DNA of 11,755 nucleotides from a virus. Shown one piece after another: positions 7,801 through 11,459 of this stretch (positions are counted from its first letter, which is position 1; every line of letters begins with the position of its first letter). The stretch lies in UHGV virus genome UHGV-2173514. One strand, 5' to 3'. Both the position numbers and the translations under genes were made by a program. The notes below the pieces were generated by a model. The model was not told the DNA's origin. It made no database searches and saw only the letters and a program-made list of their open reading frames with translations.

Positions 7801-8385
7801 TTCCTGAGTCTGCCCGGTTGTTTCTTCAGTCTGTATATCGCCTACAGGGTGATAACGATAAATCGTCGATGTGCCAATGCCGTAAATTATTGCCAGTTGT
7901 TTTCTGTCGTGCCCGTTTTTGATTAGCCTTGCTATTTGCTCATGCTGTTCTTTTGTCAGCTTCGGTCGACGTCCGCCTGTGCGCCCCCTTGCGCGCGCTG
8001 CCGCCAGCCCGGCCAGTGTACGTTCAACAATTAATTCACGTTCCATTTCAGCCAGGGCACCCATCACGTGGAAGAAAAAACGCCCCATTGGAGAAGATGT
8101 GTCTATGCTGTCGGTCAGACTGCGAAAATTAATCCCTCGCTCCCGTAGTTCCCCGACGAGAGAAATCAGATGTTTCATGCTTCGCCCGAGGCGATCCAGT
8201 TTCCAGACAACCAGCGTGTCACCTTTTTGAAGGCGCTTTAAAGCGCGTTTTAATCCCGGTCGGTCTGTCTTTGTCCCGCTTAATTTATCTTCAAATATTT
8301 GTTCACATCCTGCACAAACAAGAGCGTTTCGTTGCAGGTCTGTATTCTGGTCATTTGTTGATACCCTTACATAGCCAATCAGCAC
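7786..8385 (-). CDS. pin: Serine DNA invertase (Pin/Gin/Cin/Hin family)
   Basis: Translation LIGYVRVSTNDQNTDLQRNALVCAGCEQIFEDKLSGT...GDTLVVWKLDRLGRS...FFHVMGALAEMERELIVERT... is the hallmark serine-recombinase catalytic domain (the Ser in YVRVSTNDQ), with a C-terminal HTH (GIGTSTIYRY). Likely start is the GTG at 8385 with a GGGAGA RBS; the track's ATG at 8403 adds 6 residues. Confidence 0.9.
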   Translation of the reverse strand: MLIGYVRVSTNDQNTDLQRNALVCAGCEQIFEDKLSGTKTDRPGLKRALKRLQKGDTLVVWKLDRLGRSMKHLISLVGELRERGINFRSLTDSIDTSSPMGRFFFHVMGALAEMERELIVERTLAGLAAARARGRTGGRRPKLTKEQHEQIARLIKNGHDRKQLAIIYGIGTSTIYRYHPVGDIQTEETTGQTQENENR

Positions 8386-8569
8386 ACTGAATCTCCCGTC
8401 CAAAAGCGCAAATCATGCCATGCAGGCCAGAAACGGCCATTATTTAAAACCTCGGTTTACGAGAACTCGGCACAAGCGGGGAGAAAATACCGTTACTCAG
8501 TACAGCGAATACCTGGACCAATCGACAAACATTCAGCGGTGGCCTTTCTGGGGAACTGTCCGGCAATGC
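8194..8569. repeat. Left arm of a ~376-bp imperfect inverted repeat (partner 11084-11459)
   Basis: The reverse complement of 8194-8569 aligns base-for-base with 11084-11459 at roughly 93-96% identity by eye. It covers the invertase codons 1-64, the invertase upstream region, the gix site and ~105 bp of tail-fibre coding sequence. Confidence 0.85.
8440..8465. other. gix/hix-type invertase crossover site (left)
   Basis: TTATTTAAAACCTCGGTTTACGAGAA matches Mu gixR (TTATCCAAAACCTCGGTTTACAGGAA) at 22/26 positions: two imperfect half-sites around a central dinucleotide at 8452-8453. Confidence 0.8.
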
Positions 8570-9161
8570 CGCTACTGCAACAAAGCTGAAAACAGCACGA
8601 AAAATTGCTGGAGTTGGTTTTGATGGTTCTAGCGATATTTCAATTAGTGCCAAAAATGTCAATGCATTTGCACTCCGACAAACAGGTAATACTGTTAATG
8701 GTGATACATCCGTTGGATGGAATTGGGATAGTGGTGCATATAACGCCATGATTGGTGGTGCATCTGCATTAATTCTTCACTTTAATATAAATGCTGGTAG
8801 CTGTCCTGCCGTACAATTCCGTGTGAATTATAAAAATGGTGGCATTTCCTACAGGTCGGCTCGTGATGGTTATGGGTTTGAATTAGGTTGGTCAGATTTC
8901 TATACCACGACACGAAAACCTTCAGCGGGAGATGTTGGTGCATATACGCGGACAGAATGTAACTCAAGGTTTATTACAGGTATTCGCCTTGGCGGTCTGT
9001 CATCTGTTCAGACATGGAATGGTCCCGGCTGGTCTGACAGGTCAGGTTATGTCGTTACGGGTTCAGTTAACGGAAACCGTGATGAATTAATTGATACAAC
9101 ACAGGCAAGGCCAATTCAGTATTGCATTAATGGGACGTGGTATAACGCGGGGAGTATTTAA
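8448..9161 (+). CDS. Tail-fibre C-terminal variable cassette Sv (5'-partial, no own start)
   Basis: The frame opens right after TAA 8445-8447 inside the gix site: [63 protein letters not shown]... ending ...CINGTWYNAGSI, stop 9159-9161. Homologous to the opposite-strand cassette. The track lists only the part from the first Met (8748). Confidence 0.75.
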   Translation, partial: NLGLRELGTSGEKIPLLSTANTWTNRQTFSGGLSGELSGNAATATKLKTARKIAGVGFDGSSDISISAKNVNAFALRQTGNTVNGDTSVGWNWDSGAYNAMIGGASALILHFNINAGSCPAVQFRVNYKNGGISYRSARDGYGFELGWSDFYTTTRKPSAGDVGAYTRTECNSRFITGIRLGGLSSVQTWNGPGWSDRSGYVVTGSVNGNRDELIDTTQARPIQYCINGTWYNAGSI

Positions 9162-9163
9162 CG

Positions 9164-9697
9164 ATGATGCACTTAAAAAACATTACTGCTGGCAACCCTA
9201 AAACAAAAGAGCAATACCAGCTAACAAAGCAATTTAACATCAAATGGCTTTATTCAGCTGATGGAAAAAACTGGTATGAGGAACAAAAGAATTTCCAGCC
9301 AGACACTTTGAAAATGGTCTATGACCATAACGGCGTTATTATTTGTATTGAAAAGGATGTTTCAGCAATTAATCCGGAAGGCGCAAGCGTCGTTGAATTA
9401 CCTGATATTACAGCAAATCGCCGGGCTGATATTTCGGGGAAATGGATGTTCAAAGATGGCGTAGTGGTAAAGCGAACTTATACCGAGGAAGAGCAGAGGC
9501 AACAAGCGGAAAATGAAAAGCAGAGCCTGTTGCAACTTGTCAGGGATAAAACTCAGCTATGGGACTCACAGCTACGGCTGGGCATCATTTCCGACGAGAA
9601 TAAACAAAAATTAACCGAGTGGATGCTCTATGCGCAGAAAGTCGAATCCACAGACACCTCCAGCCTGCCAGTAACATTTCCCGAACAACCTGAATGA
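9164..9697 (+). CDS. tfa: Tail fibre assembly protein (Tfa, Mu U / P2 G-like)
   Basis: 177 aa, starting 2 nt after the Sv stop. The N-terminus MMHLKNITAGNPKT...[13 protein letters not shown]...PDITANRR...GKWMFKDG is nearly identical to the minus-strand paralog while the C-terminus diverges. Confidence 0.9.
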   Translation: MMHLKNITAGNPKTKEQYQLTKQFNIKWLYSADGKNWYEEQKNFQPDTLKMVYDHNGVIICIEKDVSAINPEGASVVELPDITANRRADISGKWMFKDGVVVKRTYTEEEQRQQAENEKQSLLQLVRDKTQLWDSQLRLGIISDENKQKLTEWMLYAQKVESTDTSSLPVTFPEQPE

Positions 9698-9701
9698 GAC
9701 A

Positions 9702-9728
9702 AGGCCCGATAACGGGCCTTAATTTTTA
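9702..9728. terminator. Terminator hairpin between convergent tfa genes
   Basis: aggcccg (9702-9708) / cgggcct (9713-9719) with loop ataa, followed by taattttta. The stop codons of both tfa genes flank it. Confidence 0.6.
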
Positions 9729-10253
9729 TTCAGGCTTTTGTGGCCATTCAGGATTTGCCGTATCCACACGGTTGACCAGAACACTGTAGCGTTCCCATGC
9801 TTCCAGTCGTGTGCGTTCCTCGTCTGTTGCCATATTCAGCCTGACAGCGCGTTCCAGCGGCTGGATGACTGATTCAGCTTCGGAAAGCAATGCGGCCTTT
9901 TGTGATTCGGCCTGTTGTTGCTGTTCGTCAGCCGTATAAATCCGTTTAACCACAGCTCCGTCCTTAAACATCCACTTACCGGAATCATCGGTCCGACGAT
10001 TGGCCGTTATATCGGGAACCTCGACGACGCTAAAACCTTCGGGATTAAGCGTGGAGGCATCTCTGGTGATGGCGACAATAATATTATTTTCATCGTAAAC
10101 AATCTTTATGGTGTCTGGCTGAAAGTTTTTCACTTCCTCATACCAGTTTTTTCCGTCCTCAGAGTAAAGCCAGATAACTCCGTGTTTCTTTGTTAACTCA
10201 TACTGTTCCAGTGTTTTAGCATTACCCGCTTTTATGTTCTTTAAGTGCATCAT
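9726..10253 (-). CDS. tfa: Alternative tail fibre assembly protein (Tfa')
   Basis: 175 aa, [14 protein letters not shown]...; paralog of the plus-strand Tfa. Starts 1 nt after the Sv' stop. Confidence 0.9.
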
Positions 10254-10254
10254 A

Positions 10255-11205
10255 TTAAACGCTCGCTACATTATACCAGGTGCCATTTATATACTTTTGA
10301 ACGGGTCTGTAATAAACGCCCGCTATATTATCGGCAGAGTTAGACCCTGTATCCTGAACATTAATACCAGACAATACATGACCTGAAGGGCACTGGAAAT
10401 TCCATGTTTGCCAGTTGTTCACTCCATAATATTGCTGTGAACCAAGTCGAACATCTTTCACATAACGGGAATCAAAGTTACCGTAATCCGAGGGGTTAAC
10501 ACGCCCTGTAATATTTATGGTTTTATTACTTTGAATGCTTCCGGAGACAAAGCGCATAACATGGACGTTATTAGCATAAACATCCAGATTACCATCGCCA
10601 TTTTGTTTAAAGCCCGTGTCATTATCACCCAATACAATCGAATTACCGCCAAGAGCACTGGATGTTCCGATACCCAGTGCACCATTCAGTTGACCACCAG
10701 ATAACGGCAGTGCACCAACATCTCCTGCTGAAGGTTTTCTGGTGGTGGTGTAAAATTCGGACCAGTCGGCTTCAAAACCATAACCATCACGGGCTGAACG
10801 ATAAAAAATACCGCCATTTTTATAATTAATCCGAAACTGAGCTGCAGGACAACTTCCGTCTCCCATATAAAAATGAATAATTAACGTTGATGCACCACCA
10901 ATATTTGCGTTATAGGCTCCGCTACTCCAGTTCCATCCAACTGCTTTATCATTCGCAACGGTGCTTCCTGTTTTCCCTAAGGCAAACGCACCAACATGAC
11001 TTGCTTTTAATGTGATATCGGAGGAACCATCAAAAGCCACATTGCTTATTTTCCTGGCAGTTTTTAATTTTGCAGCTGTAGAAGCATTGCCGGATAGTTC
11101 ACCAGAAAGGCCACCGCTGAATGTTTGTCGATTAGTCCAGGTATTCGCTGTACTGAGTAACGGTATTTTCTCCCCGCTTGTGCCGAGTTCTCGTAAACCG
11201 AGGTT
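10255..11205 (-). CDS. Alternative tail-fibre C-terminal variable cassette Sv' (5'-partial, no own start)
   Basis: The minus-strand frame is open from the gix-R site (stop at 11208-11206) through ...[38 protein letters not shown]... to ...[12 protein letters not shown]. The track shows only 10255-11040 from an internal GTG. Confidence 0.8.
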
Positions 11206-11213
11206 TTAGATAA
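11188..11213. other. gix/hix-type invertase crossover site (right, inverted)
   Basis: TTCTCGTAAACCGAGGTTTTAGATAA; its reverse complement differs from the left site at one position. Confidence 0.8.
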
Positions 11214-11243
11214 TGGCGGTTTCTGGCCTGCATGGCATGATTT

Positions 11244-11459
11244 GTGCTTTTGGACGGGAGATTCAGCGTGCTGATTGGCTATGTAAGGGTATCAACAAAT
11301 GACCAGAATACAGATCTGCAACGAAACGCTCTTGTTTGTGCAGGATATGAACAAATATTTGAAGATAAATTAAGCGGAACAAGGACAGGCCGACCTGGAT
11401 TAAAACGTGCTTTAAAGCGCCTTCAAAAAGGTGACGCACTGGTTGTCTGAAAACTGGAC
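11244..11459 (+). pseudogene. Truncated second copy of the invertase 5' end (first ~64 codons, premature stop)
   Basis: Encodes (V)LIGYVRVSTNDQNTDLQRNALVCAGYEQIFEDKLSGTRTGRPGLKRALKRLQKGDALVV, then TGA at 11448-11450 where the intact gene has Trp. Nucleotide similarity to the intact gene ends at about 11460 and no catalytic-domain remainder or HTH follows in any frame. Confidence 0.75.

Follow-up and report, generated by a model that had tools for sequence, protein, structure and literature searches.

Gene Content of the Locus

The window considered here, the whole 11,755-nucleotide stretch of UHGV virus genome UHGV-2173514, holds tail genes of a P88-like (P2-type) prophage, Phi1, an intact DNA invertase gene, a 2.7-kb tail-fibre segment between two gix-like 26-bp sites (8440-8465 and 11188-11213) and, past the second site, the decayed 5′ part of another invertase gene at the edge of a lambdoid prophage, Phi4 (Table 1). 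Positions 1-112 of the window, present in prophage-bearing genomes only, are prophage DNA and cannot show that this copy lies at serS, the place of Phi1 in E. coli ST131.

Table 1. Features along the window, with strand and the basis of each assignment.
Feature	Position	Strand	Basis or remark
hok/gef-family toxin gene, serS-proximal end of P88-like prophage Phi1	250-390	-	Annotated homologue in aligned locus L001
ogr/delta-like zinc-finger late activator	595-855	-	ORF; annotated WP_000488106.1 in loci L001 and L003
gpD (late control D) tail gene	896-2005	-	ORF; annotated in L001; same place in phage P88
P2-type tail block	2163-7757	+	ORFs, annotated relatives, phage P88
Sheath FI	2163-3347	+	P2-type tail block
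Tube FII	3347-3872	+	P2-type tail block
gpE	3928-4302	+	P2-type tail block
E′	4311-4466	+	P2-type tail block
Tape measure	4453-7256	+	P2-type tail block
gpU	7269-7757	+	P2-type tail block
Gin-type serine DNA invertase of Phi1, 199 aa	7786-8385	-	Ser9 present; Resolvase 1.4e-50 and HTH_7 4e-13 (Pfam)
Invertase 5′ part and leader, left outer arm of long inverted repeat	8195-8439	-	Two conserved Fis-consensus matches
Left crossover site	8440-8465	+	TTATTTAAAACCTCGGTTTACGAGAA; identical to EC958 'Phi1_3prime' (Table 3, PMC4134206)
Fibre C-terminal cassette A	8448-9161	+	gp37_C match; silent here, stop TAA 8445-8447 upstream
Tail-fibre assembly chaperone for cassette A, 177 aa	9164-9697	+	Caudo_TAP 3.6e-37
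Tail-fibre assembly chaperone for cassette B, 175 aa	9726-10253	-	Caudo_TAP 4.2e-38
Fibre C-terminal cassette B	10255-11205	-	gp37_C 7.5e-08; mirror stop 11208-11206
Exact stretch common to Phi1 and Phi4, 300 bp	10905-11204	.	Phi1-to-Phi4 change somewhere inside
Right crossover site	11213-11188	-	TTATCTAAAACCTCGGTTTACGAGAA; identical to EC958 'Phi4_3prime' (Table 3, PMC4134206)
Right edge of lambdoid prophage Phi4	11214-11755	+	Decayed invertase, unrelated Phi4 sequence, methyltransferase 3′ end
SAM-methyltransferase gene, 3′ end	from ~11649	-	Phi4 annotation

The left invertase, a protein identical to WP_000905061.1, has the N-terminal catalytic domain with Ser9 and the C-terminal HTH of a small serine recombinase, and matches the Mu Gin structures 4m6f and 3uj3 with E = 3e-100. 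Of the right one, codons 1-60 alone are open (11268-11447), ahead of a TGA and more stops, and homology to the intact gene extends to 11458. Both genes take part in an inverted repeat of 457 nt (8149-8605 versus 11048-11504, 89% complementary), the high-identity part of which extends from 8195 to 11458. The first-pass annotation had described a segment with invertase 5′ ends at both of its sites, as indeed it is, the left gene being intact and the right one decayed. It had further called the right gene a truncated copy of the left; truncated it is, but not a duplicate of its neighbour, because the outer arms of 270 nt differ at about 6% of positions (94% identity) and each is identical to a different E. 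coli ST131 prophage. Kept in both arms are two G-N13-C Fis-type matches about 49 bp apart, GTATCAACAAATGAC and GTGCAGGAT[G/A]TGAAC, which, by analogy with the Gin and Hin enhancers, mark 8195-8439 as a candidate recombinational enhancer.

The two 26-bp sites lie in inverted orientation, differ at one position and have the same core, ACCTCGGTTTACGAGAA. Matches in the window to the core AAACC-NN-GGTTT comprise two perfect ones and one further site with one mismatch, where 0.44 matches would be expected by chance at up to one mismatch. Between the sites, mirror-image cassettes on both strands, each made of a gp37_C-type tip and a Caudo_TAP chaperone and sharing protein stretches of 17 and 11 residues, form the arrangement typical of a fibre switch. 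The other part of such a switch, a constant fibre 5′ part ending at a crossover site, is absent from the window. Two further statements of the earlier annotation therefore hold for the window as written, namely that no constant fibre part stands beside either site and that neither cassette can be expressed as a fibre fusion, in-frame stops being present at 8445-8447 and 11208-11206.

Two Prophages in One Window

Positions 1-11204 of the window are identical to Phi1 of E. coli ST131, with 6918-11204 identical to the Phi1 of strain NR363, and positions 10905-11755 are identical to Phi4, near ompW/trp, of strain EC958. The last mismatch to Phi4 falls at 10904 and the first mismatch to Phi1 at 11205, and the outer half-site of the right crossover site (11188-11213) is of Phi4 and not of Phi1 type. 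At the right flank, 606 nt have 100% identity to the Phi4 locus in hundreds of genomes, including the Phi4-specific sequence beyond 11458 (a partial chaperone remnant and the methyltransferase).

The gene order of the left part is that of Escherichia phage P88 (Xuanwuvirus, Peduoviridae), in which hok, D, FI-FII-E-T-U, the invertase and the invertible segment follow one another; P88 DNA matches the query (window 500-11755) at 92.5% identity across 84% of its length. As far as the right crossover site the window is 92-95% identical to P88 and P884B11, and the Xuanwuvirus order hok-D(-)-FI FII E E′ T U(+)-invertase(-)-segment-H I J W V(-) is kept that far but not beyond it: P88 continues after the segment with a full-length tail fibre gene and then I, J and W, whereas the window continues with Phi4 sequence.

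In finished genomes Phi1 and Phi4 are always separate loci, 527-568 kb apart, and their right sites are direct repeats in all genomes checked. The complete genome of strain 18044, where the two loci are 568 kb apart, gives the measure of what they share: a direct repeat of 1,284 nt with 96.5% identity, in which the longest exact run, of 300 nt, ends at the crossover core.

Layout of the Two Switches in Other Genomes

Complete genomes are uniform in this region, the right flank of Phi1 consisting without exception of the constant H fibre gene followed by I, J, W and V. Around the identical intact invertase, a constant fibre part adjoins the right site in all ten distinct neighbourhoods (61 contigs), and the truncated invertase occupies its canonical Phi4 context (lambda J, lom, Stf, two chaperone genes and the silent cassette) in ten more (47 contigs). 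Where the orientation matches, Phi1 of complete genomes has cassette B fused to the constant H part (tail fibre gene 15256-17478 in locus L001). A constant fibre part contiguous with one of the sites in the true genome was the finding that, by the first-pass annotation, would make the arrangement a mis-assembly, and it is what complete genomes, P88 and these ten intact-invertase neighbourhoods display.

The join of the window is found in 0 of 5,426 complete E. coli genomes, among which the best cover ends at window position 11217 or 11458, and was seen neither around the two invertase genes in 20 distinct public neighbourhoods nor in P88. Of the 33 IMG/VR loci that carry the Phi4 outer site, none combines the Phi4 flank with the invertase and U genes of Phi1. 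A search for the junction pattern, defined as Phi1-type SNPs tied to the Phi4 outer half-site, gave no match in genome contigs, a collection in which the Phi4 outer site by itself also had no match, and none in viral contigs. The pattern did match a single independent low-coverage metagenome contig (L014), in which a Phi1-type cassette is joined to the outer flank of Phi4; since this contig carries an inserted ISEc12 and ends short of the left site, it confirms nothing, and it may itself be a chimera of the kind proposed for the window. No Phi4 locus with the entire segment of the window was found, the best matches being Phi1 loci in the flipped state. Strain JJ1887, whose annotation suggested a Phi1/Phi4 hybrid, proved to have a canonical Phi1 with IS1 in the silent cassette.

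Both segments invert in nature. Among related loci, as distinct from the sample of the window, the Phi1 segment occurs in one orientation in L001, L024 and L061 and in the other in L003, L016, L022 and L023, and the Phi4 segment differs likewise between L004 and L012. In EC958 each segment orientation makes up about 50% of PacBio reads, and the Phi1 invertase acts in trans to invert the segment of Phi4 (Forde et al., 2014; PMC4134206).

Origin of the Join

Judged from sequence comparison, the layout with an invertase on both sides is probably an assembly chimera of two prophage switches and not a new kind of switch (probability about 0.7). Both halves are identified, they have a repeat in common, the canonical layouts occur elsewhere and both orientations exist in nature; all this is shown directly, and it suggests that the assembler, not the cell, produced the join. 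A low-coverage short-read assembler would have run from Phi1 into Phi4 across the 300-bp exact repeat inside the 1.3-kb near-identical cassette, and the window would consist of the left part of Phi1 (tail end, intact invertase and 2.7-kb segment) and the outer edge of the Phi4 invertible segment. On real chromosomes each switch operates like that of Mu: the invertase recombines two inverted 26-bp sites and so fuses either fibre-tip and chaperone cassette to a constant fibre gene beyond one of the sites.

Three features expected of such a chimera were found. Every finished genome places the two sides at separate loci; the breakpoint falls within an exact repeat that exceeds the usual length of k-mers or reads (300 nt exact within 1,284 nt); and there are independent marks of fragmentary assembly. 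The window contains three N runs, two of them inside the tail block (2163-7757), which exceed the replaced sequence by 13-23 nt and interrupt the tube and tape-measure reading frames, and which are therefore scaffold-gap estimates from a fragmentary assembly; three such gaps of wrong length are typical of a low-coverage scaffold. The EC958 genome paper itself describes spurious contigs from these very loci and warns of assembly artefacts (PMC4134206).

Against a chimera it can be said that the join sits in a contiguous stretch and not at an N gap, and that the interval containing the breakpoint stops precisely at the crossover core, as site-specific recombination would also leave it. These points lead to the foremost alternative, an unlikely one, that the join is a real recombinant of Phi1 and Phi4. 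The simplest viable route would be the integration of an excised circular Phi1 into Phi4 by one crossover, which could be either homologous, in the shared cassette, or a rare reaction between molecules carried out by the invertase at the sites; D, FI-U, the invertase and the segment would then come to lie beside the decayed Phi4 invertase, with the host genes kept. The repeat is long enough for RecA, the Phi1 and Phi4 sites are near-identical and the Phi1 enzyme works on Phi4 in trans (PMC4134206), both Phi4 orientations are found, and contig L014 offers a second link between Phi1-type cassette and Phi4 flank. The prophage DNA at the left end, moreover, leaves this copy untied to serS.

The same junction would follow from a deletion between the two direct sites, but at the cost of 527-568 kb of core chromosome, including dmsABC, pflAB, serC and aroA, as mapped here. 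The block presumably also holds rpsA, fabA, the fab cluster, lolCDE and prfA, going by the established E. coli map, and such a deletion would be lethal because essential core genes would go. Whichever the route, the join is in none of the 5,426 complete genomes, 108 long contigs and 33 viral contigs, and a cointegrate would be assembled only if it were the predominant genotype. Recombination between direct repeats or between separate molecules is strongly disfavoured in wild-type invertases of the Gin family, by the topological filter of Gin and Hin. Somewhat more doubtful still is the general proposition that the co-resident prophages were recombined by a Gin-type invertase, or by RecA at the shared cassette, for example through insertion of an excised P88-like genome into the lambdoid prophage.

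A functional switch of three or more sites, in which the segment would be a silent store and a larger programmed inversion would bring in a distant constant fibre gene, is very improbable. The earlier annotation had offered this as one reading, and half of it stands: such genomes do have further crossover sites beside long constant fibre N-termini, next to the P2-type H gene of Phi1 and the lambda-type Stf gene of Phi4, and the H and Stf constant parts are homologous over about 490 nt beside their sites. The larger inversion is the half that does not. The sites alternate in orientation (+ - + -), so inversions keep the short segments at odd positions with the 527-kb chromosomal block between them, and, reasoning from these observed orientations, the two invertase flanks never become neighbours by inversion. 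In no complete genome does the Phi1 invertase lie within 3 kb of the Stf constant part, and at each of the two insertion sites known for Phi4-type prophages, ompW/trp and potB, the orientation relative to Phi1 is the same. No fixed inter-prophage inversion was found with a synthetic query of Phi1 invertase, segment and reversed Stf constant part, the cover of which ended 494 nt into Stf because the constant ends of H and Stf are homologous. The large inversions reported for ST131 are mediated by rRNA operons and do not occur between these sites, IS elements being cited as a general cause only.

Local decay within one prophage, with part of the left gene duplicated in inverted orientation in place of the constant fibre gene, would account for the resemblance of the outer arms, but it is rejected as the least credible reading of all, each arm being 100% identical to a different prophage and the sequence past 11458 belonging specifically to the Phi4 locus.

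Relation to Known Switches and Implications

The closest relatives of the window are the Phi1 and Phi4 switches of EC958 (Forde et al., 2014; PMC4134206), whose sites, intact and truncated invertases and cassettes are essentially identical to those seen here. The difference is one of arrangement: in EC958 and all other complete genomes 527-568 kb separate the loci, both of which possess a constant fibre gene of their own, and the window presents half of one and the edge of the other. Gin-type switching, and the flipping in trans of a segment whose own invertase has decayed, have accordingly been known for this prophage pair since 2014.

Among classical systems, the G segment of Mu and D108 is close, with a Gin almost identical to the window invertase in its N-terminal domain and, in D108, 91% DNA identity to segment and invertase. 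Mu and the window are alike in their 26-bp gix-type sites, mirror-image S-variable/U cassettes and an invertase 5′ end at one site; at the other site Mu has the end of the constant S part, whereas the window has the second, decayed invertase. The C segment of P1 with Cin and the P segment of e14 with Pin belong to the same family of serine-invertase fibre switches, are more distant in sequence, and neither has invertase ends on both sides. That defective prophages retain such segments, which related enzymes can flip in trans, is established for e14 as for Phi4 (PMC4272514).

Short-read contigs of such regions may be composites, because co-resident prophages share cassettes and sites over hundreds of bases and flip in cultures, and the window is mainly a warning for genome scans that composites can mimic new switch architectures. 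If the join were a true product of recombination between the prophages, one outcome would be the silent segment between two invertase ends and the reciprocal one a segment between two different constant fibre genes, and a P2-type and a lambda-type phage would exchange fibre-tip cassettes. It would then be direct evidence of switch-mediated exchange between unrelated prophages, of moderate interest for the evolution of phage host range.

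Architecture of the invertible segment

The window contains a 457-nt inverted repeat, 89% complementary, whose arms on alignment resolve into three zones: an inner one of about 160 nt, coding for the conserved beginning of a fibre cassette; a middle one, the 26-bp crossover site; and an outer one (about 245 nt, 94% identity) that corresponds to the invertase leader and 5′ end and stops sharply at 8195 and 11458. The core AAACC-NN-GGTTT occurs exactly twice without mismatch, and a third, imperfect copy could have arisen by chance (0.44 matches are expected when up to one mismatch is allowed). 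An in-frame stop lies within each crossover site, ahead of both cassettes, which open with the same sequence, and a Caudo_TAP chaperone gene follows each fibre tip. The right invertase has 60 open codons, then TGA and more stops. The first-pass annotation had described this segment, its stops and its flanking intact left and truncated right invertases accurately; repeat, sites and reading frames agree, and these features of the sequence are real and non-random.

Coordinates of the main features in the window
Feature	Position	Strand	Sequence or remark
N run	410-431		22 nt; 9 nt in ST131 references
N run	3785-3819		35 nt; 22 nt in ST131 references
N run	6873-6917		45 nt; 22 nt in ST131 references
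Left invertase, complete	7786-8385	-	catalytic domain almost identical to Mu Gin (PDB 4m6f, E = 3e-100)
Left repeat arm	8149-8605
Left crossover site	8440-8465	+	TTATTTAAAACCTCGGTTTACGAGAA
Right repeat arm	11048-11504
Right crossover site	11213-11188	-	TTATCTAAAACCTCGGTTTACGAGAA
Third gix-like core	11690-11701		GAACCTTGGTTT; one mismatch; within Phi4 methyltransferase gene

Two known prophages in one sequence

Up to its right site the window is a prophage that over 100 complete Escherichia coli genomes, mostly ST131, carry at serS (99.7-99.9% identity), and all of these matches end at 11217. The gene order of this prophage, hok, ogr(-), D(-), then FI, FII, E, E', T and U (+), followed by an invertase (-), the invertible segment and a full-length tail fibre gene (-), with I, J, W, V and the remaining P2-type morphogenesis genes beyond, is the same as that of phage P88 (Xuanwuvirus, Peduoviridae). 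Against the classical P2 gene order as reference, the FI-FII-E-T-U block with the invertase, within window 896-8385, is inverted relative to D-ogr and H-I-J-W-V, which is the normal Xuanwuvirus layout, not a local rearrangement, because it is common to P88 and to every related prophage neighbourhood examined. The last 606 nt (11150-11755) are 100% identical to another locus, present in hundreds of genomes: a lambdoid prophage adjoining the trp operon, at the right end of its invertible fibre segment. The order there is lambda J, lom, Stf (constant and variable), chaperone, chaperone', silent cassette, truncated invertase and methyltransferase. These two prophages are Phi1 and Phi4 of the ST131 strain EC958, the left site of the window being "Phi1_3prime" and the right one "Phi4_3prime" (PMC4134206).

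Compared base by base, the window is identical to Phi1 (strain NR363) over 6918-11204 and to Phi4 (EC958) over 10905-11755; since these identities overlap, the change-over falls within a 300-bp stretch identical in both prophages and ending at the crossover core. The finished genome of strain 18044 has the two loci in the same orientation at a distance of 568 kb, and they have in common a 1,284-nt collinear repeat (96.5% identity), the longest exact run of which is the same 300 nt.

Several further differences among these prophages were seen. Compared with both NR363 and EC958, the tape measure gene has an in-frame deletion of 27 nt (GCGCTTGCGCGTGTAACGCAGGCTCGT) at about 4915, which may reflect natural polymorphism or a collapse in the assembly. 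The gpD protein, full length in NR363 and the window, is shortened to 266 aa in the annotation of EC958 and strain JJ1887, where the gap between its gene and FI is larger (4788-6055 of the EC958 Phi1 locus versus 896-2163 of the window), so that in certain ST131 strains Phi1 could be a defective prophage. In OZ040035.1, a prophage of Phi4 type that carries the identical truncated invertase adjoins potB-potA-pepT-phoQP-purB, not ompW/trp, a second insertion site of the same polarity.

The join in other genomes

A search of 5,426 complete E. coli genomes did not find the join; query 7000-11755 reached at most 89% cover and query 8466-11755 at most 91%, the latter's matches being flipped-state Phi1 loci. 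Around the identical intact invertase, the H fibre gene (the constant fibre gene of Phi1) lay beyond the segment in all ten distinct neighbourhoods (61 contigs), and around the identical truncated invertase the Stf context was present in ten of ten (47 contigs). None of 33 IMG/VR loci with a Phi4-type outer site combined the Phi1 and Phi4 flanks, and a junction-specific pattern had no match in GTDB representative genomes or IMG/VR. That pattern did match one metagenome contig (ERZ505807 NODE_337; 4.1 kb, 5x coverage), in which a Phi1-type cassette carrying ISEc12 abuts 64 nt of Phi4 flank and which stops short of the other site. Its ISEc12 (IS21 family) lies in the silent fibre cassette, at the equivalent of window 10774-10781, with an 8-bp target duplication; JJ1887 has IS1 in the same cassette (11347-12044 of locus L060), and silent cassettes seem to be tolerated as IS targets.

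Assembly or recombination

We consider it most likely (probability about 0.7) that the assembler joined Phi1 to Phi4 across their shared exact repeat. The N runs are 13-23 nt too long and shift the tube and tape-measure reading frames, for which reasons they look like scaffold-gap estimates rather than length-true masks, and they divide the window into pieces of 0.4-4.8 kb, as is typical of low coverage. At such coverage a repeat common to two loci would be better covered than its unique exits, and an assembler would take whichever exit happened to be present, which fits the report of spurious contigs at the Phi1 and Phi4 loci by the EC958 authors (PMC4134206).

A real inter-prophage recombinant is an unlikely source of the join, though one with a viable route: one crossover, either at the sites or within the shared cassette, could insert an excised Phi1 circle into Phi4, and window 1-112 is prophage rather than host sequence, as this route allows. 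If the chromosome is written a-S1-P-S2-b-S3-Q-S4-c, with P and Q the two segments, sites oriented + - + -, a comprising U and the invertase, b the 527-kb block with H at its start and Stf at its end, and c the decayed invertase, then S2 x S4, a recombination between direct repeats, gives the window (a-P-c) and would remove the remaining genes of Phi1 and about 500 kb of core chromosome. In the block that would be lost we saw dmsABC, pflAB, serC and aroA, and by the established E. coli map it also holds rpsA, fab genes, lolCDE and prfA.

Invertases recombine sites of opposite orientation, and the number of blocks turned round by any one such inversion is odd; by our reasoning, therefore, P and Q stay outside, b stays in the middle, and a and c never come to lie one segment apart. 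The larger inversion proposed in the first-pass annotation is thus topologically excluded for the known layouts (both known Phi4-type insertion sites, ompW/trp and potB, have the same polarity), and its products, sought in complete genomes with a synthetic query of invertase, segment and reverse Stf, were absent.

Operation of the component switches

Phi1 and Phi4 each carry a Mu-G-type device, and both orientations of each occur among sequenced genomes. The Gin orthologue cuts two inverted 26-bp sites at their central dinucleotide and exchanges strands, reversing a 2.7-3.1-kb segment; the cassette that comes to abut the constant fibre gene supplies the C-terminus of its protein and has its own chaperone gene downstream. 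The other is kept silent by the TAA that forms part of the site on the invertase side. With its intact enzyme, inverted sites and pair of candidate enhancers, the segment as written in the window could still flip, but to no effect, since no constant part lies next to it in either orientation. The last ~490 nt of the H constant part (16219-16712 of its locus, L001) and of the Stf constant part (~5476-5969 of L002) are highly similar beside the crossover sites, so that two unrelated tail types, P2-type and lambda-type, have in common the adaptor that is fused to the same cassettes.

The EC958 authors noted the truncated Phi4 invertase, reported PacBio reads of each segment in both orientations, and proposed that the Phi1 enzyme works in trans on Phi4 (PMC4134206). 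The two component switches and the trans relationship between them are thus already in the literature, and the interest of the join is correspondingly low. The Phi4 remnant keeps the leader and first ~60 codons (~190 nt of coding sequence), which are 94% identical to the intact gene. Both 8195-8439 and 11214-11458 have conserved two matches to the Fis consensus, which in Phi4 fall within the retained 190 nt, at what we take to be the enhancer position of Gin and Hin. An enhancer must lie in cis even when Phi1 supplies the enzyme, which would explain why the stump persists: it may be kept by selection as a candidate cis enhancer for the trans-acting Phi1 invertase.
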